DNA of 26,212 bases from NCBI GenBank assembly GCA_031425655.1, contig JANPJS010000256.1, forward strand, positions 1 to 26,212, read 5' to 3'. Every line of letters begins with the position of its first letter. Within the stretch, counting starts at the first letter, position 1. This document shows positions 2,325 to 15,469 of this stretch, one piece after another. This DNA is from Abditibacteriaceae bacterium. GTDB taxonomy: Bacteria > Armatimonadota > Abditibacteriia > Abditibacteriales > Abditibacteriaceae. The notes beneath the pieces are model-generated. The model had not been told where the DNA came from. It did not search any database and saw only the letters and a list, made by a program, of their open reading frames with translations. The translations under genes and the position numbers were made by a program.

Positions 2325-2529
2325 TCTGTCATCGTCAACAAACGGTCGGCTGCACACAGCTTGCAAGGACGACCGAGTTGTCCACTATTTTCCGGCACAC
2401 AGGCCAACATGCGGTCAAACACCTGGGGCTTGACACCGGTGAGCCGCTGGAACTCCTCCAGCTTACGATCCTTAATCTGTTCGTATTTCACACCTCACAG
2501 TTTGACACCCTATTTATGAAAGAGGTCTA
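2325..2529 (-). mobile_element. Truncated IS5-family (ISL2/IS702-like) element: left end plus transposase N-terminal fragment
   Basis: ORF from GTG2491 (SD GAGG) reads MKYEQIKDRKLEEFQRLTGVKPQVFDRML...GRPCKLCAADRLL, an HTH_Tnp_4-like start. The end sequence TA|GACCTCTTTCATAAAT is at 2529-2512. No DDE domain or right end is present. Confidence 0.75.
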
Positions 2530-3036
2530 TTGTAGGAAATACAAGTTTCCGGCACATCGGCACCATCGGCGTCTAACGGCGCCAGATAATCGAAATTGGT
2601 ATCTCGAATGCCATGTCCCGAAAAAAAGAAGACCACCTCGCTGTTCTCGTTAATATTGGCCGTGAAGGTGCGCAGCACGCGCAAGATATTAACGCGGTCG
2701 GGCTTGCGGCGCGCTTCGGAATCGTCGGTCATTAAGATGATGGACTGAGCCGGAAAGCCCATTTTCTCCTCCAAAAAGCGCGCGAAGGCTTTGGCGTCTT
2801 TGCCACAGGAGCGAAGCTTGCCCAGCGTCCAGTAATCGTCCACGCCGACAGTAATCGTCCACGCCGATGACCACGGCGGTCTTGTCAACGCCGGGCGTGT
2901 TGGTAATCGGTGTGAGCTGAAAGGCCCGGCTTTCCGCCGTGAGCGCTTTGCCGCCTTCTGCTTTAGTCAAGACGGGAGCTTGCGCTTTAAGCGGCAAGGC
3001 TAAAACAACTAACAGGCCGAAAAGTATTGAGCGCAT
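2514..3036 (-). pseudogene. Secreted caspase-like (peptidase C14) protein, frameshifted by a 19-bp tandem duplication and truncated by the IS
   Basis: Signal peptide MRSILFGLLVVLALPLKA. Removing one CAGTAATCGTCCACGCCGA copy joins AVVIGVDDY to WTLGKLRSCGKDA...FFFSGHG...YLAPLDA. The gene stops at the IS end before the catalytic Cys motif. Confidence 0.8.
2830..2867. repeat. Perfect 19-bp tandem duplication
   Basis: CAGTAATCGTCCACGCCGA occurs at 2830-2848 and 2849-2867. Confidence 0.95.
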
Positions 3037-3053
3037 CAAATATCTCCGAGAAA

Positions 3054-3272
3054 TTATCTTTTGCTTATTTTAGCACCTTTACAAGGCGGGTCAGGAGAAA
3101 CCGCATGGGCCTTCAAATCACTAAGAAGCATGAGGCCCAAGCCGGAGCCAAGGTAAAGCAAGCCGGCGAGCAAGCCCGGCGACAAACCGCTCAGTAGCAA
3201 CTTCGCAAAGGGTGTGCTGCCGCCAAACAACGCTGCTGCGCCGATGGCCTGCCAGATTCCGGGAGTGCGCAT
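3054..3272 (-). pseudogene. EamA/DMT-family transporter, N-terminal fragment only
   Basis: GIWQAIGAAALFGGSTPFAKLLL...LLAGLLYLGSGLGL matches the first two EamA helices. The ORF is only 72 aa, against about 300 expected. Confidence 0.7.
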
Positions 3273-3279
3273 GAGGAAG

Positions 3280-3329
3280 AAAAAAGCTGGCGTGAGCAAT
3301 GGACGGTGATTTGTCCCATTGCTCACGCC
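3280..3329 (-). terminator. Intrinsic terminator downstream of the efflux operon
   Basis: 14-bp perfect stem (3289-3302/3316-3329) followed on the minus strand by AGC and T6. Confidence 0.65.
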
Positions 3330-3342
3330 TAATTGCATCTTA

Positions 3343-3525
3343 AAGTCTGTGCTCAAAAAGAGTTATTCAGTCCGTTGCCATTGAGTGGCAAAAAATTGAG
3401 TGGCAAAAAATAAGGGCATCAATGGCATTTCGGATGAGAAATCCCACTTTTCCACCATTTTTTGCCACTCAATTTTTTGCCGTTGGGCCGTTTTTACCCA
3501 AATAACTTTATTCGCGCACAGACTC
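3343..3525. mobile_element. MITE-like element with TIRs and a TTA target duplication, enclosing a 25-bp inverted repeat built from a 15-mer
   Basis: TIRs at 3344-3367/3501-3524 match 20/24 (AGTCTGTGC...AGTTATT). TTA flanks both sides (3340-3342, 3526-3528). The inner IR at 3387-3411/3457-3481 is perfect. Confidence 0.7.
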
Positions 3526-4308
3526 TTAGTGGTCGTGAGGTTTGTCATCCGTATGGGCGTGCGGCTTTTCTTCCGCGTGCTCATGAGGCTTGCTTTCATC
3601 GTGCGGCGCGGCGCCGTGATTGGCACTGCCGTCATCAGGGGCGTTTCCGTGCCCTCCCTCTTTAGCGTGCTCGGCAGCGTGCGCGGCGGCAGCGGCGGCG
3701 TTGAAATTCTCATTGATAATCCAGCCGCCGCGCCGCACCGTGTCCGCCACTTCCTGCGCCTTGTTGTTGGGCAAACCGGCGACGGCCTTCAAGTCTTTGC
3801 CGATTTTGAACGGCTGCTCGTAGCTCTTGCCCTTGAACTGCGCCACGAATTTCTTGAAGTTGTCGTCGGTGTCTTCGAGCGCCTTTACGCCGCTGATCTT
3901 GAACTTGGGATCAATGCCGACGGCGATGTGCATTTCCTGTTTGTCAGGCATCGCGGCATGGGTCAGGATGACCAGGCCGAGGCGGCGCCCATCCTGATTG
4001 GCCTCGAAGACTTCCCAGTCTTTTTCGCCGCCCTTGAACTTCATGCTGATGTCTTTATTCAAGTGAAACGGCGCGTCATCGGCCAGTTTCCACGGCTTGC
4101 GCTTCAATTCGGCGCCGGGGAAAAGTTCGGCCATTTTCTCGGTTTCGTGTCCGGCGTGCGCGGCCTGTGGGTCAGCGTGTTGCGCTGAGGTTGCTTGCGT
4201 TGTGGTCGCCGTTTGAGGCGCGTCTTGCGCGTTCTTGCAGCCGGTCGCGCCAACTAAAAAAGCGGCGCTCAAAGTGACTTTTAAAACGGGGTAAATCCAA
4301 ACTTTCAT
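3526..4308 (-). CDS. Lipoprotein with an FMN-binding (RnfG/NqrC-like) fold and a His-rich C-terminal tail, 260 aa
   Basis: The likely start is ATG4308, in a TGATG overlap with the RND stop. Lipobox GATG|C. The pattern MHIAVGIDPKFKISGVKAL...FVAQFKGKS resembles FMN_bind proteins. The tail reads PHDESKPHEHAEEKPHAHTDDKPHDH. Confidence 0.7.
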   Translation of the reverse strand: MKVWIYPVLKVTLSAAFLVGATGCKNAQDAPQTATTTQATSAQHADPQAAHAGHETEKMAELFPGAELKRKPWKLADDAPFHLNKDISMKFKGGEKDWEVFEANQDGRRLGLVILTHAAMPDKQEMHIAVGIDPKFKISGVKALEDTDDNFKKFVAQFKGKSYEQPFKIGKDLKAVAGLPNNKAQEVADTVRRGGWIINENFNAAAAAAHAAEHAKEGGHGNAPDDGSANHGAAPHDESKPHEHAEEKPHAHTDDKPHDH

Positions 4309-7300
4309 CAAATCTCCTTGGGTGCGGTCGGAGCCGCTGGTAAAACAGAATGGGAAACGGGAAACGTCCGCGTGGGCGCTTCGGGCGGCGCGCTGTTTTC
4401 TTGGTTTGCGCGTTCGTCTAAGACCTGATCGGCCACCGGCTTGCCGTATTTCCAGAACAGCGCCGGCGTTACCAACTGATCGAGCAGTGTCGAGGTAATC
4501 AGGCCGCCCAAGACGACGACAGCCAACGGTTGCAGAATCTCTCGGCCCGGCTCGCCTTGCGCCAGAGCCAAGGGTATCAGTGCCAAACCTGCTGTGAGCG
4601 CAGTCATCAGGACGGGCACCAGCCGTTCCAGCGAACCGCGCACGATCATGTCGGGCGTCCAGCCCTCGCCTTCCTCGCGCATCAAGTGCAGGTAATGCGA
4701 GATCATCATAATGCCGTTGCGGCTGGTGATGCCAAACAGCGAAATAAAGCCGATCAGCGAGGCGATGGACAGCACGCCGCCGCTCCAATAAACCGCTAAG
4801 ACGCCGCCGATGATGGCTAAAGGAATGTTGACCATCACCTGTAAGGCCGCGCGCCAGTGGCCCAGCGCCATGTTGAGCGTCAGGAAAATCGCCACAAGGG
4901 CCAAAGCCGAGAGCGTCAGAATCAAGCGTTGCGCCGCCTGTTGCGCCTCGAACTGGCCACCATATTCGACGAAGTAACCTTCGGGCAAAACCACCTGCGT
5001 GCGAACCGCTTTTTGAGCGTCTTCCACGACCGAGTTGAGATCGCGTCCGGCGACGTTGGCACTAATCACGATGCGCCGTGCCACGTTTTCGCGCGCCACG
5101 ACGTTGGGGCCAAAACCTTCTTGAATCTGCGCCACACTCGACAAGGGGATTTTGGCGCCGCCCGGCGTGTCAATCAGCACGCTGCGAATCGCTTCGATAT
5201 TGCCCCGGTTCGCGTCGTCAAAACGCACTACCACATCATAAGCGCGCTGGCCTTCAAGAACCTGCCCGGCGACCTTGCCGAGCAGCGCCACTTCGAGAGA
5301 TTCCGCGACGGCACCGCTTTGCAAACCGTAACGCGCCAGAGCGTCGGGCAAGAGGCGCACTTGCACTTGGGGGATTTCGACTTGTTTTTCAACCGTCAAA
5401 TCCACCACGCCGGGCACGCTGGCCATCGCGCGCCGCACTTCTTCGGCTTTGGCGCGCAAGGTCGGCAAGTCCGAGCCAAAAAGTTTGACGGCCAGTTGCG
5501 CCCGCACGCCCGATAACAAGTGATCGAGACGATGTGAAATTGGCTGTCCAAGCGTAAAAGTAACGCCAGGTAGCGTGCCCAGCTTTTGGCGCATATCGGC
5601 CAACACTTCCGCTTTGGCCCGCCCTTCGTGCAATTCGACTTCGATTTCGCTGGAATGCACGCCTTCGGCGTGTTCATCCAGTTCGGCGCGGCCTGTGCGC
5701 CGTCCAACTTCACGCACTTCGGGCACCTTCATCAACAGCTTTTCCGCTGCCAAGCCCAGCACGTTGCTTTCGGTCAGGCTGGTGCCGGGACGCGCCAAGA
5801 GGTTAATGGTCATCGAACCTTCATTAAACGGCGGCAAAAACTCGCGGCCCATAAAGGGCACGGCAGCCAGTGCCAGCATAAAAAGCACACCCGCGCCCGA
5901 AAGCACGGGGCCGGGATGCTTGAGCGACCAGCGCACCAGTTTTTCATCGCGCGCTTTGAGCCAGCGAACGAGCGGTGAATCTTTTTCCTGGTGCAAAATG
6001 GCTTTGGAACGCGGCAAAAGATAGCTCGCCAAGACCGGCGTCAACGTCAGCGAAACCAGCAAGGACGCTAAGAGCGAAACGATGTAAGCCACGCCCAATG
6101 GCGCGAACAAGCGGCCTTCCATGCCCGGCAGGGCAAAGAGCGGCAAAAAAACCAAACACACGATGACCGTCGCGTAAACGATGGAATTTCGCACTTCGCG
6201 GCTGGCTTCGTAAACCACTTCCAAGGCCGGACGCGGCGTGGGGCTATGCGCGTTTTCTCGCAGGCGGCGAAAGACGTTTTCGATGTCCACGATGGCATCG
6301 TCCACCAACTCGCCAATGGCAACGGCCAAACCTCCCAGCGTCATGGTATTGACGCCGATCTCGAACTGCTTGAAGACCATCGCGGCAACCAAAAACGAGA
6401 GGGGAATTGCCGTCAGGGTGATGAAGGTGGTGCGGACGTTGAGCAGAAACAAAAACAGCACAATCGCCACCAAAATAGCCGCATCGCGCAACGCATGAAC
6501 CACGTTGCCGATGGCGTTTTTGATGAAGCTCGCCTGCTGAAACAAGCGGTCATTGACCACGATGTCTTCGGGCAAATTGCGGCGAATATCGGCCAGAGCC
6601 GTTTCAATCTTCGCCGTCAAATTGAGCGTGTTGGCGCCGGGCTGCTTTTGCACGTTGAGAATAACGGCGGTTTGCCCGTTGGCCGAAGCGTCGCCGCGTT
6701 TGACTTGCGGCGCGGCAATGACGCGTGCCACTTGCCCAACCGTGATTGGCACTCCGTTCCTCGCTTCGATTGCGGTGCGCGCAATATCTTCAGGCGACAG
6801 CGAACGCCCCAGATTTCGCACCAGATATTCGCGCCCGGAGCGTTCGACAAAGCCGCCGGTTGTGTTGAGATTACCGCCTTCGACCGCGCGCTCGACCGCA
6901 CTCAGCGATACGCCAAACTGCCGCAGTTTCGCCGGGTCAATCAGGACGTGGTATTGTTTGCGCCCGCCGCCTAAGACGATAACCTGCGACACGCCGGCGA
7001 TACTGAGCAGGCGCGGTCGCAGCGTCCAGTCGGCGACGTTACGCAGTTGCAGCGCATCGGTTTTGCCGCTTTTCGAGGTGAGGGAAATCAACATGATTTC
7101 GCCCATCACCGAAGAAATCGGCGCGAGGGACGGCACGATGTCGGGCGGCAATTGGCTGCGTAACTGGCCCATCCGCTCGTTGACGATTTGCCGGGCCACC
7201 AAAATATCGGTTTCCCAGCCAAACTCAACGTGAACGATGGAAAGTCCCGGCGCCGACGAAGAACGCACGCGCTCCACGCCGGTCGCGCCGTTGACCGAGG

Positions 7301-7511
7301 TTTCAATCGGCAGTGTGACCAGCGTTTCCACTTCTTCGGGTGCCAGACCGTGCGCCTCGCTCATAATCGTCACGACGGGGCGGTTCAAATCGGGCAGCAC
7401 GTCAACCGGCAGGCGCGATGCTGTGATTCCACCGTAAATGAGAATCAGCGCGGTCAGGGCTAAAACGACGGGGCGATAGGCCAGTGACCACGCGATAATG
7501 CGATTGAGCAT
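4308..7511 (-). CDS. Heavy-metal efflux RND transporter, CzcA/CusA family, 1067 aa
   Basis: Motifs LPVDVLPDL, APEEVETLVT, GGLAVAIGELVDDAIVDIEN, GREFLPPFNEG and ERLVPVLMTALTA, at typical RND length. Confidence 0.97.
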   Translation of the reverse strand: MLNRIIAWSLAYRPVVLALTALILIYGGITASRLPVDVLPDLNRPVVTIMSEAHGLAPEEVETLVTLPIETSVNGATGVERVRSSSAPGLSIVHVEFGWETDILVARQIVNERMGQLRSQLPPDIVPSLAPISSVMGEIMLISLTSKSGKTDALQLRNVADWTLRPRLLSIAGVSQVIVLGGGRKQYHVLIDPAKLRQFGVSLSAVERAVEGGNLNTTGGFVERSGREYLVRNLGRSLSPEDIARTAIEARNGVPITVGQVARVIAAPQVKRGDASANGQTAVILNVQKQPGANTLNLTAKIETALADIRRNLPEDIVVNDRLFQQASFIKNAIGNVVHALRDAAILVAIVLFLFLLNVRTTFITLTAIPLSFLVAAMVFKQFEIGVNTMTLGGLAVAIGELVDDAIVDIENVFRRLRENAHSPTPRPALEVVYEASREVRNSIVYATVIVCLVFLPLFALPGMEGRLFAPLGVAYIVSLLASLLVSLTLTPVLASYLLPRSKAILHQEKDSPLVRWLKARDEKLVRWSLKHPGPVLSGAGVLFMLALAAVPFMGREFLPPFNEGSMTINLLARPGTSLTESNVLGLAAEKLLMKVPEVREVGRRTGRAELDEHAEGVHSSEIEVELHEGRAKAEVLADMRQKLGTLPGVTFTLGQPISHRLDHLLSGVRAQLAVKLFGSDLPTLRAKAEEVRRAMASVPGVVDLTVEKQVEIPQVQVRLLPDALARYGLQSGAVAESLEVALLGKVAGQVLEGQRAYDVVVRFDDANRGNIEAIRSVLIDTPGGAKIPLSSVAQIQEGFGPNVVARENVARRIVISANVAGRDLNSVVEDAQKAVRTQVVLPEGYFVEYGGQFEAQQAAQRLILTLSALALVAIFLTLNMALGHWRAALQVMVNIPLAIIGGVLAVYWSGGVLSIASLIGFISLFGITSRNGIMMISHYLHLMREEGEGWTPDMIVRGSLERLVPVLMTALTAGLALIPLALAQGEPGREILQPLAVVVLGGLITSTLLDQLVTPALFWKYGKPVADQVLDERANQENSAPPEAPTRTFPVSHSVLPAAPTAPKEI

Positions 7512-7514
7512 GGC

Positions 7515-10139
7515 TTATTCTCCCCGCGCCGCTTGCGCCCGAAGCGAAGCGCCGCCTTGTGTTACGACTTGTTCGCCCTGCTTGACGCCTTCGAGAATCG
7601 CCACGCGATTGTTGCTGCTGGCACCAAGACGCACCGCGCGCCGCTCGTAACGCGCACCGCGCTTAATGAAGACGATCTTGGCGGCGCCATCGTCCACAAT
7701 GGCTCCGGCGGGAACCGTGAGAGCGAGTTTGCCTTGCCCGGTTTCGATCACGCCGCGCGCGAACATTCCGGGCCGCAACGCGCCGGTGTTATCTAAAATC
7801 GCCCGCGCGATAACGGTGCGCGATTGTGGATTGACTTCGCTGCCGACCACGCTGAGGCGCCCGCTAAAGGTGCGATTCGGCAAAGAGGGAATCGTCACGC
7901 GCACAAGGGCGCCGGGCACCACGCGCGGCAAGTCGCTTTCAAACAAGGCAGCTTCTATCGCCACACGCGAAAGATTGACGATGGTGAGGAGCGGCGCGTC
8001 GGCCTGCACCAATTCGCCGGGCGCGGCTTCGCGCGACTGCACTACGCCAGAAAGCGGCGCGCGAATCGGCACGGAGACGCTGCCATCGGGCGCGCTTTTG
8101 AACAGGGCTAAAGTCGAACGCGTCGCGTCTACATCGGCTTGTGCGGCGATGGCAGCAGCTCTGGCGCTTTGCAATGGCCCGGTATCGTTGATGCGTCGTT
8201 GATAAAGCAACGCTTCGCGCGCTAATAAATCTTGCGCCACGCGCTGAGCGCCTCGCGCTTTGGTCAGTTCGGCCCCTGCGCTTTCGACTGCCGAACGTGC
8301 CGTGCTGATTTCGCGGAGGTTAGCCAAATTCTGGTCTAAAACACGCTTTTCGCGCGCCAAAACGCTTTCCGCCAACTGCTCGGATTCTTTCTTATGCTTG
8401 ACTTCTTCGGTTGCGGTTCTCACTTGGTTGCGCGCGGTTTGCAGCGCGGTTTGTGCGGCCTGAATTTCGGCATTGCCCGCCACGTTGGTAGCGGCCAACT
8501 TTTGCTGGCGCTCAACTTCGGCTTGGGCTGCGGTTTCGTCGGCCTGAGCAGTTTTTAAGCGCGATTCGGCGCTCTGGACGGCGGTTTGTGCCGTTTCCAC
8601 GTCGCGTTTGGCGACTAAGCCTTCTTTCACCAAAATCTGCGAGCGCGAAAGCTGCGCTTGCGCTGTCGCCAACTGGCTTTGCGCGGCGGCGATTTCGGCG
8701 CGGGCCGTCGTCAAGGCGCGCCGCGCTTCCTCTAAGGGTTTGGAATTGTAGGCTCCGGCCTGCGACAGTTCACGGCGGCGCTTCAGTTCGGCTTCCCCGG
8801 CCTCAACGCTGGTTTGGGCATTGGCGAGCGTGAGTTCCGCATCATCCACCGCTTCGTGCGCTAAGGCCGCCTGGCGCCGGGCTTCTTCATACGCCGGACT
8901 CGCGTAGCTGCCAGCGCGGGCAAAGCGCAGTGTATTTTCCTGCGCCGCCCGCGCTTTTCTCAGTTCAGATTCGCGCACTCGCACTTCGCCGTTCGCTTCG
9001 ACAATAGCACGGCGCGCCACGTCCAGCGGCGCCCGCGAATAGACGCCAGCTTTCACCTGTTGCTGGGTAACCGCTTGCTGCGCGCGGGCATTTTGCAGGC
9101 GGGCTAATGCCTGACGATAGGCCGACTGCGCTTCACCGATGGCGCGGCTCTCGACTACCGCCACGATTTGCCCTTGCCGAACGTTATCGCCCTGTCGCAC
9201 GCTGAGGCGCACCACGCGCCCCGGCACAACCGAAGCCACGCGCACTACGGCATCCGGCGCCGGTGCGATTTGGCCGTTAAAAGCGATGCCGCCGGTTACA
9301 GTCGTGACCGTTGCGGGCGCAGTCTTGATGTCCAAGAGCGCAGCGGTTTCGGAGGGCAGTTGCACCTGTCCGGGCGGCAGTGTTTGTGGCGTGGCGATCC
9401 GCGTGCGCGCCGTCAAAACGATGCGAAGTGGCCCGGCTTTGGAGGTGGAGGAAACTTCGCCGACTTGAATCGCCGGACTTCCCGCAGGAGGCGCGGCAAC
9501 TTCCTTCGTCTTTTCGCCGGGGCCGTGCGAATGCCCATCAGAAGCGTCGCCGCCGGCAAACGCCCGCGCCGTTACGAGAGAAAGGGCCAACATTGCAGCA
9601 GCAGTCGGCAATCGGCGTTTGCGACTTCGTAACAGCAACGCCACCACGCCCAGCGCCAGCGCGCCCAAAATAAACGGCAAAGCGCGTTGCACTGGCGCAG
9701 TTTCAGGCGGCGCGGCAGTGGGTAATTTCAGTTCAACGGTGGTGTCAATAGAGTCGCCGCTTTTGGGCGTGATGCTCAGTTCAAGAGCATAAGTTCCGGC
9801 GGCGGGAAACGCATACACGTCACGCCCGCCGAAATTCATGCGATAAGCGCCGGGGCTTGTTCCGGGTTCGCCCGTCACCAAACCAAGCAGTTCGCCGGTC
9901 ACGGCGTTCTTCAAAAAGCCGGTGATTTTAGCGCCTTCAAGCGGCGCTTCGGCTCCGGCAGCGCCTTTAGTCAGATCAGCGATCTTGAGTTCGATTTCGG
10001 TTTCCGTCGCGCCGGGACGCAAAACGGTTTCCTGAACGTGTTCACCACCGGCGCCATGCGAGTGACCATCCGAAGCGTCGCCACCGGCCCATGCGCGCGG
10101 CGCCGTGAACAGGAGCATTAAAAACAAAAGGTATTTCAA
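7515..10139 (-). CDS. RND periplasmic adaptor (CzcB/CusB-like MFP), unusually long at 874 aa
   Basis: TTG start with SD GGGAG. Lipoyl halves VASVVPGRVVRLSVRQGDNVRQGQ and IRAPLSGVV. Beta-barrel/membrane-proximal motifs LRPGMFARG and VAILEGVKQGEQVV. Located between tolC and the RND gene. Confidence 0.93.
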   Translation of the reverse strand: MKYLLFLMLLFTAPRAWAGGDASDGHSHGAGGEHVQETVLRPGATETEIELKIADLTKGAAGAEAPLEGAKITGFLKNAVTGELLGLVTGEPGTSPGAYRMNFGGRDVYAFPAAGTYALELSITPKSGDSIDTTVELKLPTAAPPETAPVQRALPFILGALALGVVALLLRSRKRRLPTAAAMLALSLVTARAFAGGDASDGHSHGPGEKTKEVAAPPAGSPAIQVGEVSSTSKAGPLRIVLTARTRIATPQTLPPGQVQLPSETAALLDIKTAPATVTTVTGGIAFNGQIAPAPDAVVRVASVVPGRVVRLSVRQGDNVRQGQIVAVVESRAIGEAQSAYRQALARLQNARAQQAVTQQQVKAGVYSRAPLDVARRAIVEANGEVRVRESELRKARAAQENTLRFARAGSYASPAYEEARRQAALAHEAVDDAELTLANAQTSVEAGEAELKRRRELSQAGAYNSKPLEEARRALTTARAEIAAAQSQLATAQAQLSRSQILVKEGLVAKRDVETAQTAVQSAESRLKTAQADETAAQAEVERQQKLAATNVAGNAEIQAAQTALQTARNQVRTATEEVKHKKESEQLAESVLAREKRVLDQNLANLREISTARSAVESAGAELTKARGAQRVAQDLLAREALLYQRRINDTGPLQSARAAAIAAQADVDATRSTLALFKSAPDGSVSVPIRAPLSGVVQSREAAPGELVQADAPLLTIVNLSRVAIEAALFESDLPRVVPGALVRVTIPSLPNRTFSGRLSVVGSEVNPQSRTVIARAILDNTGALRPGMFARGVIETGQGKLALTVPAGAIVDDGAAKIVFIKRGARYERRAVRLGASSNNRVAILEGVKQGEQVVTQGGASLRAQAARGE

Positions 10140-11509
10140 GGATTCTCCCTTCGCGGAGTCAAAGTGGCAGGTGCAGTTTCAACAGGCGAGCCGCCGCCAA
10201 CGGCGTTTTCCAAAGCGACTTCCTGCGTTCGCGCGCCGACAAGGCTCAGCAGATATTCGCTTTGCACTTGGCGCAGCGTGCGTTGCGCTTCTAAAACTTC
10301 CAGATAAGTCGAAGCGCCCGCCGTGTAGCCGAGTTGCGTTTTTCGGAGCAGTTCCAGCGTGCGCGGCACAAGGGCCGTGCGATAGCGTTCAGCCGTCGCG
10401 CGTCGCTCTTGCCAGCGCACAAGGGCGATTTCCAGTTGTCCGGCTGCCTGCGCTCTCAAGAGAGCGGTCTGCGCTTCCTGAGCGCGGGTTTCGGCCTCCA
10501 ACGCTCGCTTTTCGCCCCGTAATGCCTTGTTGCCGAAAAGAGGAATATTGAGAACGGCGCGCACCGCCAAACCGCCGTTACTACTTAGCACAGCGGCCCG
10601 GCGCAGTTGAATTTCCACAGTGGGGCGCCGCTCGGCATTTAACTCCAACGCCTGCGCCCGACGCACCTCGACCAGCGCCTGCGCGCCTTCAATATCGGGC
10701 CGCGTGCGTGCCAAATCCAAAAGACGCGGGCGCAAAGCGGCAAAATCAGCCGGCTCGATAGCAGAAGCTGACGTTGAACCGGACGCAGGTGGGAAAATAA
10801 GACGGCGCAGCGGATCGAGCAAAATGGTTTCAGTCGGCGGTGCTATACGAAGCGGCGTTTGTGCTTCCTGACCGATTAAAACATTTAAGGCGGCACGCCG
10901 CGCCAAACGGTCAGCGCGGGCCGCTTCCAATTCGTTCTGAGCGCGCAGCACTTCCAACTCGGCGCGCTCCGCCTGCACTGCCGGCGCCTCGCCCAACTCC
11001 GCGCGCCGCCCGGTCGCCTTGGCAAACGCCTCTGCGACTTCGACTTGCGCCACATTAAGTGCTTCGGATTCCTGAGCGGCAAAAAGGTCAACCGCTGCGC
11101 TTTTCACTTGGGTTAAAAGTGCGCGTTCGGCGAGGGTTAGTTGCGTTTGGGCACGGCGCAGTTCGGCCTTAGCGACGGCCACACGCGCACGGCGCAGGCC
11201 AAAGACATCCAGCGGCTGCGCTAAAACAGTTTCTTCATCGCGCGCCTCGCGGCTGCCAAGAGCGGGCACCAGCAAGAGATGCGGCGAGGGCGAAGCGCCA
11301 CGCGCGCTCACACGCTGGCGGGCCGCTTCCACGCCTTCGCGGGCAATGGTCGCTTGCGGGCTTTTTTCCGACAGGCGCCGAACCAGTTCATCGAGCGTGA
11401 TTTCCGGTTCGGCGGGTAAAGGATTCGGCAAAGGGGAAAGGGGCGACTCCTGGGCGGCGGCATTGAGGGCCATCGTGAGCAGCAGTCCCCATAAATAGGG
11501 TCGAGACAA
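10136..11509 (-). CDS. TolC/CzcC-family outer membrane efflux protein, about 457 aa
   Basis: The likely start is TTG11509, 7 nt after GGAGG. It has a signal peptide and two OEP-like repeats (RPDIEGAQA; YTAGASTYLEVLEAQRTL). Its stop overlaps the adaptor start. Confidence 0.92.
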   Translation of the reverse strand: MSRPYLWGLLLTMALNAAAQESPLSPLPNPLPAEPEITLDELVRRLSEKSPQATIAREGVEAARQRVSARGASPSPHLLLVPALGSREARDEETVLAQPLDVFGLRRARVAVAKAELRRAQTQLTLAERALLTQVKSAAVDLFAAQESEALNVAQVEVAEAFAKATGRRAELGEAPAVQAERAELEVLRAQNELEAARADRLARRAALNVLIGQEAQTPLRIAPPTETILLDPLRRLIFPPASGSTSASAIEPADFAALRPRLLDLARTRPDIEGAQALVEVRRAQALELNAERRPTVEIQLRRAAVLSSNGGLAVRAVLNIPLFGNKALRGEKRALEAETRAQEAQTALLRAQAAGQLEIALVRWQERRATAERYRTALVPRTLELLRKTQLGYTAGASTYLEVLEAQRTLRQVQSEYLLSLVGARTQEVALENAVGGGSPVETAPATLTPRRENP

Positions 11510-11516
11510 AGGGATT

Positions 11517-11633
11517 CCTCCTGGGAATTCAGAGGGCGGACGCGCGAAAACGCCCGCGCCCGTCAGGGAGCAGTTGTGAAAAGGCCGGACGCACAAAAAA
11601 GATTAGCGCGGCGGCAGCTTAAACCACAGGAGG
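11517..11633 (-). promoter_or_regulatory. Putative anti-SD/SD pairing between the leader Pro-Pro codons and the tolC RBS
   Basis: mRNA CCUCCUG (11633-11627) is complementary to CAGGAGG (11523-11517). A GC-rich hairpin lies between them (about 11561-11534). Confidence 0.45.
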
Positions 11634-12095
11634 GGCACGACCGGCAAGGGGAAGAAAAAGGTGTTCGGAGGGCGGCGATTCCGCCTCCGGCCCATCACGC
11701 CCAAAAGGCTTGAGTTCGCGCGGCGATGGTAGGACGCTGGTGTTAGCCAGCACAGCAACCGGCGGCATAAAGAGAAATTGCTGCGACGCCGGACTCCATT
11801 TGAAGGCACTTAATAACGCCTGGTCGTGGGAGTGGTCTCGCTGTTCGGCGTGATGATCCCTGTGATGCTCCGTGCCCGCATCCGGCGCATGGCTGTGCGC
11901 CACGTCATCAAAATGTCCCGCCACATGATGATCTGCATGATGTTCCAGCGTTGCGGGTGCCGCAGTGTGTAGGAAATCCTGCCACTTGTGCGCGGTTCGC
12001 GTCAGCGACGAGGGCACCAGCAGGCAAATCACCATCAAAGCCCAGCGCGGCGCGCGCAGGAACTCTAAGATGGATGTAGGAAAAGGTCGAGACAT
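11619..12095 (-). CDS. His-rich leader-type protein with a hydrophobic N-terminus and C-terminal RAPP motif (DUF2946/CruR-like architecture), about 158 aa
   Basis: Hydrophobic segment WALMVICLLVP, then 15 His within about 57 aa, a Pro-rich linker, and the end LPLAGRAPPVV*. It is the first gene of the efflux operon. The start codon is uncertain. Confidence 0.7.
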   Translation of the reverse strand: MSRPFPTSILEFLRAPRWALMVICLLVPSSLTRTAHKWQDFLHTAAPATLEHHADHHVAGHFDDVAHSHAPDAGTEHHRDHHAEQRDHSHDQALLSAFKWSPASQQFLFMPPVAVLANTSVLPSPRELKPFGRDGPEAESPPSEHLFLPLAGRAPPVV

Positions 12096-12389
12096 CGGGG
12101 TTATAAACAAGGGGTTATCGAAAGAAACGATCACCGACTGTGGCGATTTGAAAACTCGGAGCGTTAGGGAGTGTAGCAGCTTGGGCCTCTTTGGCATCAA
12201 TATAGATTCAGTCAGCGCCTGCGAGTAAGTCAGCGGCGAGGTGCGGCCGCGCCGCTGAAATTTCTATCACCTGTATAATTTGGTGGATGCGCCAAGACCC
12301 GTGAAACCAAGCGACAAAAAATGGCTGGCCCCTAATACAAAACAGCCCGCACCCGAAGGCATGGATTGGTTCGATATTGCTATGTAGAG

Positions 12390-12415: not shown

Positions 12416-12505
12416 AGTTTCAATATGTGAAGGCTCAAAACTGCGGAACTAAATAGCAATCTACCCACTGGCTTACAGTTTTATATTGTTAATTGGTCTA
12501 ACTAA

Positions 12506-12705
12506 CTCACCTTACGCAGTAGAGTGTGTTAGGCAGGCAAATTTAAGAAGCGCTGTCATTCTGAGCTTGCGAAGAATCTCGGCCTCTGCGGTGCTTTTGC
12601 TCATGCTGAGTGAGGAGGCTCTTACGCAGAGATTCTTCGCAAGCTCAGAATGACTCAATGCCTCAGTGGTTGATCCGCCTAACACATCCCACTGCGTAAC
12701 ATGAG
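12506..12705. mobile_element. 200-bp MITE with TTACGCAG-type TIRs and a TAACTAA target duplication
   Basis: IR at 12505-12534/12677-12706 matches 25/30. TAACTAA occurs at 12499-12505 and 12706-12712. Confidence 0.8.
12555..12654. repeat. GTCATTCTGAG-type REP-like inverted doublet inside the MITE
   Basis: Perfect 26-bp IR at 12555-12580/12629-12654, 23/26 identical to the arm at 25751-25776. Confidence 0.9.
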
Positions 12706-12871
12706 TAACTAACGAAGGTTAGGTGGGGAAAAAGGCGTTTAAGCCGCCTAATCATTCAGAGGTAGCGAGTCACTAAGGAACCACCAGGAGTCGAGTGGCG
12801 TGGTGCCAGCTCACAAAGCGTATGATGCTGCTCCAACTCTCGTATCAGTGGTGAAAAGTAACTGGTTCTTT

Positions 12872-15469
12872 TCAATCCAACGCCCACAAAATGACTTCAT
12901 TAAGCGTCTTGGATTTAATCTGAGCGTGCAGTTCAAGTGCGTTTTCATCGTTGGGCATCTGCCGGGCAACACGCTCGTATAAATCTTGGGCATAACGACG
13001 TAACGGCGAGCCGATCTCTTCAAACAGCAACGCCGACGCCATAGCGCAACGCAAAGCGCACGGCCATTCGCCACGGGTTTCGGCAATTTCGCTGAGATTG
13101 TAAAGCACACGAGCCACGCCAATCGTATTTTCCAATTGCTGCTCAAATTGTAAGGCTTCTTCGTAGCATTTCTGTGCTTCTTCAAGGTGACCTTGATTTT
13201 GCGCTAATACACCTAAATTATTGAGGGCTTCGGCAATGCCGCGCCGGTCATCGTGGCGACGGCGCACAACTAAGGCTTCGTGCAAGTAATCGGCAGCAAC
13301 GGCGCGGTCGCCCGCCGGGTCTTCGCACTCGGTCGCACCTAAATTCGTTCGCACAATAGCAACGCCGATTTCATCGCCCATCTCACGGTAAAGCACAAGC
13401 GCGGCGTGAAAATATTGACGCGCATGATTCCAATCGCCTTCTCGTTTGGCAGCCAATCCCAAAATATTAGTCGCTTCAGCCTGTCCCTTGATGTCACCGG
13501 CTTGAGTAAAAAGTAACAGCGCCTGCTCGGCGCCCTGCAAAGCGGCGGCGGTTTCTAAGGTGTCAATGGAATGCCCGGCGCGCTCTCGCCAAACTTGCGC
13601 GACCAATGCAGGATCAGTGTTCACGACTTGCGGGGCCTTTTGCAGACCGATTTCAAGGCAGCGCAAGGCTTGGTTAATCAGGCCGCGCCGCTGCAAAAAG
13701 ATACCCAATGCGAGCGCCAATCGCACGCACAAAGTCGGTTCATCGTGGCCCGAACTCCAATCCAATGCGGCGCGGATGTTGTCTTGCTGCCCTTCCAATT
13801 CCTGAAGCGCCTGTGTTTCCTGCGCCGTTCGCAGCCCGGCGATGCGCTTTTCGGCGAATTCTTGAAAATAGGTGGCGTGGCGCAGGCGCACCGTCGTGTC
13901 CAGTTGCGGTGTGATCTGCAATTTTTCTTCAGCGTATTCGCGCACGGATTCGAGCATTACAAAACGCGACTGGCGCGTAGAAGCGTCGGTTTCCACACGC
14001 AGCAGCGATTGATCACGCAGTTCCTGCACGCCCTCGAAGGCATCGAAAACCTCGCAAACGGCTTCGGCATCATCCAAAGTGAAACCGCGTGCGAAAACTG
14101 CCAGTTGGGCGAAAAGAGATTGATCGTCTTCGCTCAGCAAATCATACGACCAGTCAATCGCGCCGCGCAAAGCGCGCTGGCGCGGCGGCAAATCGGGAGA
14201 GCGCGTTTGCAACACTTTGAAGCGTTGATCCAAATGGCGCACGATGTCGTGCGGCGATAAGCCGGCGATGCGCGATGCGGCCAATTCCAAAGCCAAAGGC
14301 ACGCCTTCCAGGCGACGGCAGATTTCACTGACATCAGCGAGGTTTTCATCATCGAGCGCGAAGTCGGCACGGCGCAGGCGCGCTGCTTCTTCAAATAAGC
14401 GAGCCGCCTCAACCGGTGGCAGAGGCGGCACTTCGCGCAAAATTTCAGCGCGAAGGCCTAAAGCGCGCCGAGTCGTGACTAAAAAGGTCACGCCGGGTGC
14501 TTCACGCAAAAGCTCAGTGATGCTTTGCGGCGCTTGAGGATTTTGTTCGGTATTGTCCAACACCAAAAGCAATTTACGTTCGTGGAGATAATGCCAAAGC
14601 TGTTCTTTGAGCGGTAAATTCGGCTGCGGCTGCAAGCGCAAAACCAAAGCGATGCGCGCAATTAATTCCTCGCCGGAGCGCGTTTCCTCCAGTTCTATCC
14701 ACCATACACCGTCGGAAAAGTCGCCGACGCATAACTCGGCAAGTTGCAGCGCCGAACGCGTTTTTCCCAATCCGCCAAAGCCGGTTAAAGTCAAAAGACG
14801 CGTGCGCGGCTCCAGCAAAAGCGTGCGCCAATCGGCGATTTCTGCTTCGCGTCCAATCAGAGTGAGCAGCGGAACCGGCAAATTGTGACGACGCGCATTA
14901 AGTGTGCTCAGCGGCGGAAATTCAGCGCGCGAAGCAGCATGATTGACCTGCCACAAATGCTCTTCGCCGACGCCTTTGAGACGATGCAGCCCGCAATCGA
15001 AGAGCGTAATTGCCGGCGGCAAGTGGCCGGTTGAAGATTGCGCCGTGGCATCGGAAATCAAACTTTGCCCACCGTGCCCTGCCGCCTGCACACGCGCCGC
15101 TTTGTTAGTGACCGGGCCGCGATAAGTCGGTCGTCCTTTGTCTTCGCCGATGAACGGCTCGCCCGTGTGCATCCCAATCCGCACGCGAAGCTCGCCCATC
15201 GCTTCGGGCCATTGATGCGCCGCCATAGCCTGCTGCGCTGCGACGGCGAATTGCACCGCTTGAGCGGCTTTGGAGAACGCTAAAAAGAGCGCATCGCCGG
15301 CAGTTTCGACTTCGTAACCGTCGAAGCGCTGAGCAACTTCGCGTAGCACGTCGAAGTGTTCCATGCGCGCCGCCTCGAATGCTGCGCCGTGCTTTTCCGA
15401 AAGCTCCGACGAGCCTTCGAGATCAGTAAAAACCAGCGTTACCTCGCCAGTGGGAAACTCCATTGCCAT
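12872..15469 (-). CDS. Class III nucleotide cyclase + STAND (NB-ARC-like) ATPase + TPR protein, 865 aa
   Basis: Cyclase motifs VFTDLEGS, TAGDA, RIGMHTGE and NKAAR. Walker A GFGGLGKT, Walker B LLLVLDN, GVPLALELAA, and C-terminal TPRs (AEALNNLGVLA). Confidence 0.92.
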   Translation of the reverse strand: MAMEFPTGEVTLVFTDLEGSSELSEKHGAAFEAARMEHFDVLREVAQRFDGYEVETAGDALFLAFSKAAQAVQFAVAAQQAMAAHQWPEAMGELRVRIGMHTGEPFIGEDKGRPTYRGPVTNKAARVQAAGHGGQSLISDATAQSSTGHLPPAITLFDCGLHRLKGVGEEHLWQVNHAASRAEFPPLSTLNARRHNLPVPLLTLIGREAEIADWRTLLLEPRTRLLTLTGFGGLGKTRSALQLAELCVGDFSDGVWWIELEETRSGEELIARIALVLRLQPQPNLPLKEQLWHYLHERKLLLVLDNTEQNPQAPQSITELLREAPGVTFLVTTRRALGLRAEILREVPPLPPVEAARLFEEAARLRRADFALDDENLADVSEICRRLEGVPLALELAASRIAGLSPHDIVRHLDQRFKVLQTRSPDLPPRQRALRGAIDWSYDLLSEDDQSLFAQLAVFARGFTLDDAEAVCEVFDAFEGVQELRDQSLLRVETDASTRQSRFVMLESVREYAEEKLQITPQLDTTVRLRHATYFQEFAEKRIAGLRTAQETQALQELEGQQDNIRAALDWSSGHDEPTLCVRLALALGIFLQRRGLINQALRCLEIGLQKAPQVVNTDPALVAQVWRERAGHSIDTLETAAALQGAEQALLLFTQAGDIKGQAEATNILGLAAKREGDWNHARQYFHAALVLYREMGDEIGVAIVRTNLGATECEDPAGDRAVAADYLHEALVVRRRHDDRRGIAEALNNLGVLAQNQGHLEEAQKCYEEALQFEQQLENTIGVARVLYNLSEIAETRGEWPCALRCAMASALLFEEIGSPLRRYAQDLYERVARQMPNDENALELHAQIKSKTLNEVILWALD

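Follow-up and report, generated by a model that had tools for sequence, protein, structure and literature searches.

A histidine-rich RAPP leader ahead of a heavy-metal RND efflux operon in Abditibacteriaceae, a candidate cis-acting arrest peptide that lacks mature cysteines

A small gene in a 26,212-nucleotide stretch of DNA from an Abditibacteriaceae bacterium (contig JANPJS010000256.1 of assembly GCA_031425655.1, hereafter the window) heads an operon for heavy-metal efflux and encodes a His-rich peptide ending in the arrest motif RAPP. We think it rather probable that this peptide works in cis as an arrest leader of the CutF type and governs how the tolC-adaptor-RND operon behind it is translated. 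The proposal draws on the presence of such leaders before most heavy-metal RND operons of the family and on a predicted pairing between leader codons and the next gene's Shine-Dalgarno (SD) sequence.

The leader ORF (11619..12095, on the reverse strand like all of the leader and operon features given below) translates into 158 amino acids with a Cys-free mature part. The earlier note on this DNA had described a His-rich ORF with a hydrophobic N-terminus, a Pro-rich part and a GRAPPVV end, and the translation, which ends in LAGRAPPVV and a stop codon, bears this out. Fifteen His are clustered in residues 36-90 (11826..11990), 63-117 residues ahead of the Arg of the RAPP motif (11628..11639), and one more is at residue 145; 12 Pro are present in residues 99-158. 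The single Cys, residue 24, lies within the hydrophobic stretch, which is short (mean Kyte-Doolittle value of 2.55 over residues 19-29) and follows basic residues. Judging from hydropathy, residues 18-27 (12015..12044) are a probable Sec signal or signal anchor, and the leader is probably exported via Sec. The homologue alignment brings out a second arrest-like motif, GRDGP (11688..11702), whose Arg is 20 residues ahead of the RAPP Arg.

We have hardly any doubt that the leader is a real gene. Its start was placed at 12095 because all four full-length homologues begin at the equivalent Met; a longer form starting with the TTG at 12200, to which the frame is open, was rejected for the same reason. 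We also rejected the idea that Cys are masked by an unnoticed frameshift, since the other two frames are stop-rich and the homologues match the leader frame end to end. The sequence ahead of the leader start contains no SD. A consensus promoter scan around the leader gave 0 sites and did not flag an extended -10-like element that was noticed by eye about 75 nt ahead of the start (12170..12178). The presumed leader 5' UTR has a weak terminator-like hairpin (12130-12147, reverse strand), and such sites occur at chance rate. A search of Rfam around the leader returned a single sub-threshold plant miRNA match and nothing credible.

The protein has zero matches in Pfam and NCBIfam at E<=1. The leader search against assembled-genome contigs and the searches of metagenome contigs with TolC and the subfamily alignment gave no match. 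The ESM Atlas provided a lead to small-protein clusters without a name at 0.95-0.96, with one DUF6769 row (35% of members). An AlphaFold2 model has low confidence (pLDDT 53.6, pTM 0.19) and predicts a helix at residues 9-45. The contig of one DNA run spans positions 10470-12296 with 2 differences; it possibly comes from the source sample and so is not independent support. No RNA datasets containing the leader sequence are listed.

Downstream is a gene for a TolC/CzcC-like outer membrane factor (10136..11509; PF02321), which, to judge by the SD and by an N-terminus resembling a signal, most likely starts with the TTG at 11509, 7 nt past AGGAGG, leaving a leader-tolC gap of 109 nt. It is followed by genes for an 874-residue periplasmic adaptor with His-rich repeats near its N-terminus (7515..10139; PF16576, TIGR01730) and for a heavy-metal RND pump (4308..7511), and by a lipoprotein-like ORF of 260 amino acids with a His-rich tail, a start that overlaps the pump stop and no Pfam match (3526..4308). 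The pump scores 838 bits against TIGR00914 (CusA/CzcA; cut-off 701) and contains both of the NieA-type HME5 motifs, HAEGVH and HRLDH; it is called NieA-like by these motifs, without alignment to NieA. The clade with these motifs is only a proposed nickel exporter (PMC7060636).

In line with the earlier note, which saw no two-component, ArsR or MerR regulator adjacent, none is present among the window ORFs covered by two profile scans (of 14 and 12 ORFs). The nearest gene upstream of the leader encodes an adenylate/guanylate cyclase-NB-ARC-TPR STAND protein (12872-15469, reverse strand), in which no DNA-binding domain was matched. Palindromic MITE-like elements lie on either side of the operon (12505-12706 and 3339-3529), with 153 and 37 BLAST matches in the genome, respectively, self-matches counted. 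A caspase-domain gene (two ORFs) and an EamA fragment are just beyond the operon (2514-3356, reverse strand), and a TIR + SLOG (Thoeris-like) defence gene, apparently split into two overlapping ORFs, is at 136-2312 on the forward strand.

If the leader controls a metal pump, a RAPP ending should be conserved upstream of czcCBA homologues, as the earlier note suggested, and in the family this is largely the case. Twenty-seven family genomes were searched with TolC and the pump as queries (the leader was not used) and the upstream DNA was then read; operons were counted if the pump was at least 59% identical to either TIGR00914 pump of the genome and the available sequence reached the start of the operon. 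Twenty-two of the 26 operons so counted are preceded by an R[AG]PP leader that is intact. The other four consist of one with a PAPP end, one with a frameshifted leader that has RAPP, one with no terminal motif and one with no leader. The last of these (L047, G005:C53), the sole family heavy-metal RND operon without any leader, has genes for a response regulator and a histidine kinase directly upstream. Other RND loci of the family (<=33% identity to both pumps) have an R[AG]PP leader in 0 of 14 cases, with head coverage unproven in eight of them.

The motif is also rare within the genome. In the 1.17 million residues of its long ORFs, RAPP occurs 3 times and AAPP 96 times, and a scan of 50053 ORFs found 32 that end in R[AG]PP. 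Among 1200 ORFs of 110-260 amino acids with a hydrophobic N-terminus, five end in RAPP, and every other xAPP ending occurs at most twice. All five of these leaders have His or Cys clusters, and at least four of them head metal-handling genes. One heads the window operon, another a further CzcCBA operon that comes with a CDF protein and a heavy-metal ATPase, two more a YHS/cupredoxin and a YtkA/CusB-like cluster, and the fifth a small Cys-rich ORF where its contig ends; the four leaders other than that of the window are Cys-rich. One RAPP leader (L179, G000:C59:233-736), with a strong predicted anti-SD helix, is 25 nt ahead of an exported Cys-rich ORF that is very small and has a metallothionein-like composition.

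These distributions bear on the idea that the leader does stall ribosomes but monitors Sec activity or couples the genes constitutively, in the manner of SecM, VemP or ApdP, with the His tract as a spacer. Every product of the operon depends on Sec or on insertion into the membrane, the first descriptions of RAPP peptides were of secretion monitors (PMC12992588), and metal binding by the His tract is putative. However, a general export monitor would not be expected from five leaders that all have His or Cys clusters, four of them heading metal-handling genes, from the 14 non-metal RND loci, before which no leader was seen, or from a metal-ligand motif at a fixed distance from RAPP, as is the CXXC of CruR. 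We consider this explanation unlikely.

Beyond the phylum the picture is thinner. NieA-type pumps have five convincing leaders and three variant endings among 62 loci with enough upstream DNA, and a count of R[AGSD]PP-ending ORFs at 80 loci (7 upstream, 5 downstream, 5 antisense) indicates that the motif is not enriched there. Two ORFs from distant phyla (L136 and L146) precede NieA-type pump genes; one is Cys-free with 21 His and ends in LRPPIA and the other is His-rich and ends in PAKPPRT. The number of His per leader differs with the pump, the median being 12 before NieA-type pumps (10 loci) versus 3 before CzcA-type pumps (15 loci; p=3e-4), a difference to be read with the caveat that leader and pump are inherited together. 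The pump of another locus, L163, is presumably CusA-like.

A GGAAC-N15-18-CGTT element, which we take to be of the ECF-sigma type, is found ahead of nine of 32 leaders (L036, L037, L044, L045, L048, L049, L152, L153 and L178), where 0.007 would be expected per locus; the window leader does not have it. In these relatives, a trans-acting factor could therefore control transcription.

The lack of Cys displays a more restricted pattern. Four homologues that are 65-69% identical to the leader have no mature Cys, and one of them has no Cys at all. They have in common with the leader the start, the spacing, the sequence PFGRDGP and 12 cluster His, that is, 12 of the 15 are invariant in all five subfamily members; the non-His residues kept include W38, F41 and W100. 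When 1.84 billion representatives were searched with a profile, 63 sequences matched, and 53 of these end in R[AS]PP. Only one of the 49 profile relatives with a signal-like segment has no mature Cys, and that one belongs to the Cys-free subfamily; likewise, the window leader is the sole one without mature Cys among the 32 leaders from the genomes examined. Since four homologues keep the Cys-free state, yet just this one signal-bearing relative does so, sequence comparison indicates a narrow variant within a His-plus-CC family, and a stable one. The Cys-free, His-rich form behind the variant proposed in the earlier note is a conserved subfamily, but of limited extent.

The position of the His is suggestive in this regard. 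A CC or CxC lies 65-72 residues (median 69) ahead of the RAPP Arg in 49 of 52 relatives, and the window leader has His pairs at 76/75, 72/71 and 65/63 before its RAPP Arg, in the same zone. The terminal motif itself is not fully constant. RAPP-type ends are conserved before the heavy-metal RND operons of the family, but within the Cys-free subfamily two of the four homologues end in RAPP and two in RSPP (two of five full-length members). RSPP was only partly permissive in tested peptides (PMC12992588). A fragment, P0007, also has an RSPP end and contains two Cys.

One could argue that the window copy is a decayed leader that has lost its Cys and its regulation, as it is the only one of the 32 without mature Cys and, as described below, its RNA switch is among the weakest predicted. 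Four homologues of 65-69% identity keep the Cys-free state together with the spacing, the 12 cluster His and PFGRDGP, and because they keep the His while lacking mature Cys, decay is largely refuted and we regard it as extremely improbable.

Within the subfamily GRDGP is better conserved than RAPP, being invariant in five of five close homologues. Forty-eight of the 53 profile hits contain R[ADE]GP, 35 of them exactly at -20, but the search profile itself included the motif. The 32 leaders found without the profile show an R[ADE]GP at -18 to -21 (12 leaders), a second RAPP or RGPP (6), [DA]GPP (3), RPR[GS]P (5) or no second motif (6). L049, L041, P0008 and P0030 have lost the terminal RAPP (to PAPP, LSPP or read-through) and kept the upstream R[AD]GP. 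R[ADE]GP resembles RAGP, the arrest core of SecM, and RDGP is among the conserved C-terminal motifs selected by Fujiwara et al. 2024 (PMC10987492). We suggest from these patterns that R[ADE]GP may stall ribosomes at a second position or may act within the tunnel to help the RAPP site. The available portions of the main texts of PMC12992588 and PMC10987492 make no mention of tandem arrest motifs, and literature searches listed no paper about them; some TolC-linked rows in the accessible part of the PMC12992588 supplement show the same tandem pattern.

An indication of how the leader might act comes from the mRNA. In most relatives, the Pro-Pro codons, the tail and the stop codon are predicted to pair with the ribosome-binding site (RBS) of the next gene across the intergenic region. 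The duplex between leader end and RBS at 28 loci has a predicted energy of -19.4 kcal/mol for own pairs versus -12.1 kcal/mol for swapped pairs (sd 0.66), and the gap persists with spacers longer than 60 nt (n=24), with a single locus per genome (n=18) and with the Pro codons and SD removed from the arms. Synonymous recoding is beaten at p<=0.05 by 22 of the 28 leaders, although such p-values are overstated because the loci are kin, coming from related genomes, and all of these values are energy-model predictions. The first Pro codon is CCT in 16 of 28 leaders, versus 11% genome-wide and 46 of 288 elsewhere in leaders. At loci where the SD is CAGGAG, the pairing shifts toward the stop codon and the first Pro codon is variable.

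Masking the footprint of a ribosome on RAPP lowers the predicted opening energy of the RBS by a median of 7.5-8.8 kcal/mol. The gain exceeds 3 kcal/mol at 23-25 of the 28 leader loci versus seven of 150 ordinary gene pairs (median 0), which were a sample from 411, and three loci outside the 28-locus set have gains of 5.5, 8.7 and 12.0. Strong switches are predicted at L045 and the C16 operon, among others. Seven starts in the test were set by hand, and the footprint was fixed at 24 nt from the Arg codon. Loci with an unclear next start (L161, L163, L058 and L160), those that were not parsed (L067 and L059) and those with broken leaders (L041 and L046) were dropped.

At the window locus, the predicted anti-SD arm CCUCCUG (11627..11633) is made by both Pro codons, and its partner is the SD arm CAGGAGG of tolC (11517..11523), 7 nt ahead of the TTG at 11509. 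Folding predicts that this helix closes the 109-nt intergenic region (11510..11618). The pairing probability is 0.45-0.91 depending on the fragment folded, and the duplex outdoes synonymous recodings (p=0.013). A stall is predicted to bring only a small gain, 1.0-1.9 kcal/mol (-1.2 to +2.8 across parameter settings), because a local hairpin still holds the SD, which places the window among the weakest switches; 18 of 150 ordinary pairs reach 1.9 kcal/mol and 12 of 150 reach its duplex energy. Folding of the whole window region is not better than that of shuffled sequences (z of -0.28 and -1.27), and the long-range helix was missed by RNAalifold when 11 intergenic regions aligned with MAFFT were given to it. 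Since identity in that alignment is just 47% and its SDs do not line up, pair-swapping tests were used instead. The case for SD release at the window locus, as modelled, rests on its family. Control of the operon in cis, as the earlier note proposed, is supported by this mRNA pairing with tolC, which that note had missed, but the support is weak in the window taken by itself.

The intergenic region also contains a recurrent motif near TTTCGCGCGTC (window 11539-11549), which is present in 10 of 28 leader spacers and 23 of 4820 ordinary post-stop regions. A second clan of leaders (L036, L037, L044, L152 and L153) has spacers of 200-240 nt, and there the leader does not pair directly with the SD. 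Folding suggests a relay in which a short strand immediately past the stop codon is paired with the tail of the leader; a stall would free this strand to pair onward and pull the anti-SD off the SD (three of five folds).

The same intergenic region could be read in a CruR-like manner, with the stalled ribosome blocking Rho and its release leading to Rho-dependent termination before tolC. In favour of this, the genome encodes Rho, 109 nt is a long intergenic distance and the end of the leader is rich in C (C/G 1.35), but the excess of C over G is mild and in part forced by the Pro codons, and the co-varying anti-SD helix favours control of initiation. In addition, the logic of CruR, in which metal relieves the stall and the genes go off, fits an importer. 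Transcriptional attenuation of this type is, we think, very unlikely as the main mechanism; Rho-dependent and SD-release layers could coexist.

CruR (Bp2923 of Bordetella pertussis, DUF2946/PF11162; PMC9426467) is nevertheless an informative comparison. It has in common with the window leader a terminal RAPP, at which arrest of CruR was demonstrated, a fixed spacing from metal motif to RAPP, a long intergenic region and a poorly structured protein. It differs in having CXXC 45 residues before RAPP, in being signal-independent, in a stall that Cu relieves, in Rho-dependent termination and in an importer downstream. Membership of the leader in DUF2946 was rejected, as it has no PF11162 match (the best in the whole genome, elsewhere, is 13.9 bits with a cut-off of 23.7) and no CXXC about 45 residues before RAPP; the likeness in mechanism is to CutF.

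Another alternative has the product working chiefly in trans: in the periplasm it would bind metal and either quench or feed the pump, as has been proposed for CzcI, and RAPP would be secondary. CzcI, NieI, SilD, CusD and CopL are all placed ahead of czcCBA-type operons as the leader is. CzcI precedes czcCBA and quenches the pump (PMC10127602) and the NieA operon is headed by the gene for NieI (PMC7060636). The non-His residues W38, F41 and W100 conserved in the Cys-free subfamily would also fit such a binder. In contrast to CzcI, a periplasmic quencher without the C-terminal proline motif (PMC9973294), the window leader has RAPP and no NCBIfam match; its motif and codons are under selection and co-vary with the RBS of the next gene, and its structure model is of low confidence past the N-terminal helix (pLDDT 53.6). 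The leader has no match to CopL_fam, for which two of 12 relatives gave sub-cut-off scores of 23.6 and 14.6 bits (cut-off 40). Weighing both sides, we find it distinctly unlikely that the leader is mainly a binder acting in trans.

The reading that we prefer, a cis-acting arrest leader, can be laid out in steps. The conserved leader gene would be translated at the head of the operon, and while its N-terminus is exported through Sec the ribosome would pause at RAPP, as the motif and the literature suggest. By analogy with CruR and ApdA/ApdP (PMC12992588), the P site would contain the first Pro codon and the A site the second. Arrest at RAPP seems very likely by analogy, as all seven of the RAPP/RGPP proteins tested from S. 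lividans arrested ribosomes (PMC12992588). During the stall the His cluster, being past tunnel and membrane, would sit in the periplasm because of the lengths quoted for CutF, about 30 residues of tunnel and 17 of membrane (PMC9973294). The Pro-Pro codons would mask the tolC SD and a ribosome parked on RAPP would uncover it; since leader codons pair and co-vary with the next SD, stalling should switch the pump on. The energy models make such control through SD release likely. A divalent metal on the His cluster would prolong the stall and induce the pump, as Cu does for CutF, and we lean toward such modulation through His. Nickel or cobalt would be the most likely ligand because the pump is NieA-type, an assignment that we hold only tentatively, at somewhat less than an even chance.

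A more elaborate version has two stations, with a pause at RDGP followed by one at RAPP 20 codons on. The first pause would let the His cluster sample metal while the SD is still locked, and a second, metal-stabilised pause on the anti-SD Pro codons would unlock the nickel pump. Such a leader would sense periplasmic nickel or cobalt by His only and would descend from a His-plus-CC ancestor in which His took the place of Cys while the distance to the arrest site stayed fixed, changing the metal specificity. This version is speculative and we consider it doubtful.

CutF is the closest known system, in which metal-induced stalling turns on a detoxifying gene (PMC9973294, bioRxiv 10.1101/2025.02.05.636593 and PMC8456105). 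CutF of Rhodobacter capsulatus resembles the window leader in being a small first gene with a metal-ligand cluster, a C-terminal PP and a same-strand metal-resistance gene behind it; export, an SD-shielding RNA and a stall that turns the next gene on would also be common to both. The two differ in that CutF has CxxxC and a PPP end, whereas the window leader has no mature Cys and a RAPP end, and in that the CutF stem-loop is described as intergenic, whereas the predicted anti-SD of the window leader is within the Pro codons. SecM, ApdA and ApdP have a RAGP/RAPP arrest core and stall-dependent release of a downstream SD, but they are export monitors that precede sec genes and have no metal cluster.

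The earlier note proposed a His-based leader that gates an exporter. Neither feature is new as a class, because published catalogues contain both (PMC9973294, PMC12992588). Ozturk et al. listed 5334 CutF-like proteins, with outer-membrane efflux proteins as their commonest neighbours, and the two clusters that have His only, 14 and 17, are followed by HupE/UreJ instead of RND pumps (PMC9973294). Under the rules of that survey, the leader has PP in its last 15 residues and a same-strand gene within 1000 nt (tolC, 109 nt); at 158 amino acids it exceeds the search filter of <150. The upstream ORFs of Fujiwara et al. 2025 (PMC12992588) are likewise small secretory ORFs with a C-terminal RAPP, and the leader resembles them in having fewer than 300 amino acids, RAPP near the C-terminus, a co-oriented next gene and a signal by hydropathy. 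In the accessible source data of that study, RAPP exceeds AAPP 530 to 380 (5.5-fold) when TolC is downstream, 620 to 148 (16-fold) for RND adaptors and 50 to 7 (28-fold) for CusA/CzcA, and several Cys-free His-rich TolC-linked leaders, e.g., WP_094060735.1 and WP_134082116.1, are among the 29 rows listed. The terms TolC, efflux, RND, tandem, stem-loop and Shine are absent from its main text, as far as available, and no efflux leader is tested there. What appears to be new beyond the available parts of this work, judging from sequence, is the co-varying anti-SD within the arrest codons, the tandem motif and the replacement of Cys by His.

In conclusion, hundreds of RAPP leaders precede heavy-metal efflux pumps in the available published lists, and in the literature accessible to us a metal response has been tested only for CruR and CutF, both Cu-sensing and Cys-based, neither of which controls an RND pump. 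The R[ADE]GP motif may indicate a two-site arrest design, none of which was found described in that literature. In these leaders the direction of control can be read from the sequence, as the arrest codons are the predicted anti-SD and a stall should induce the pump. The His-plus-CC leaders and the His-only leader provide a natural specificity pair ahead of the same pump type. If the ligand is nickel or cobalt, the leader would be a protein-based sensor that acts post-transcriptionally and responds to a metal besides copper, and it would hint at what the uncharacterised class of NieA pumps transports.
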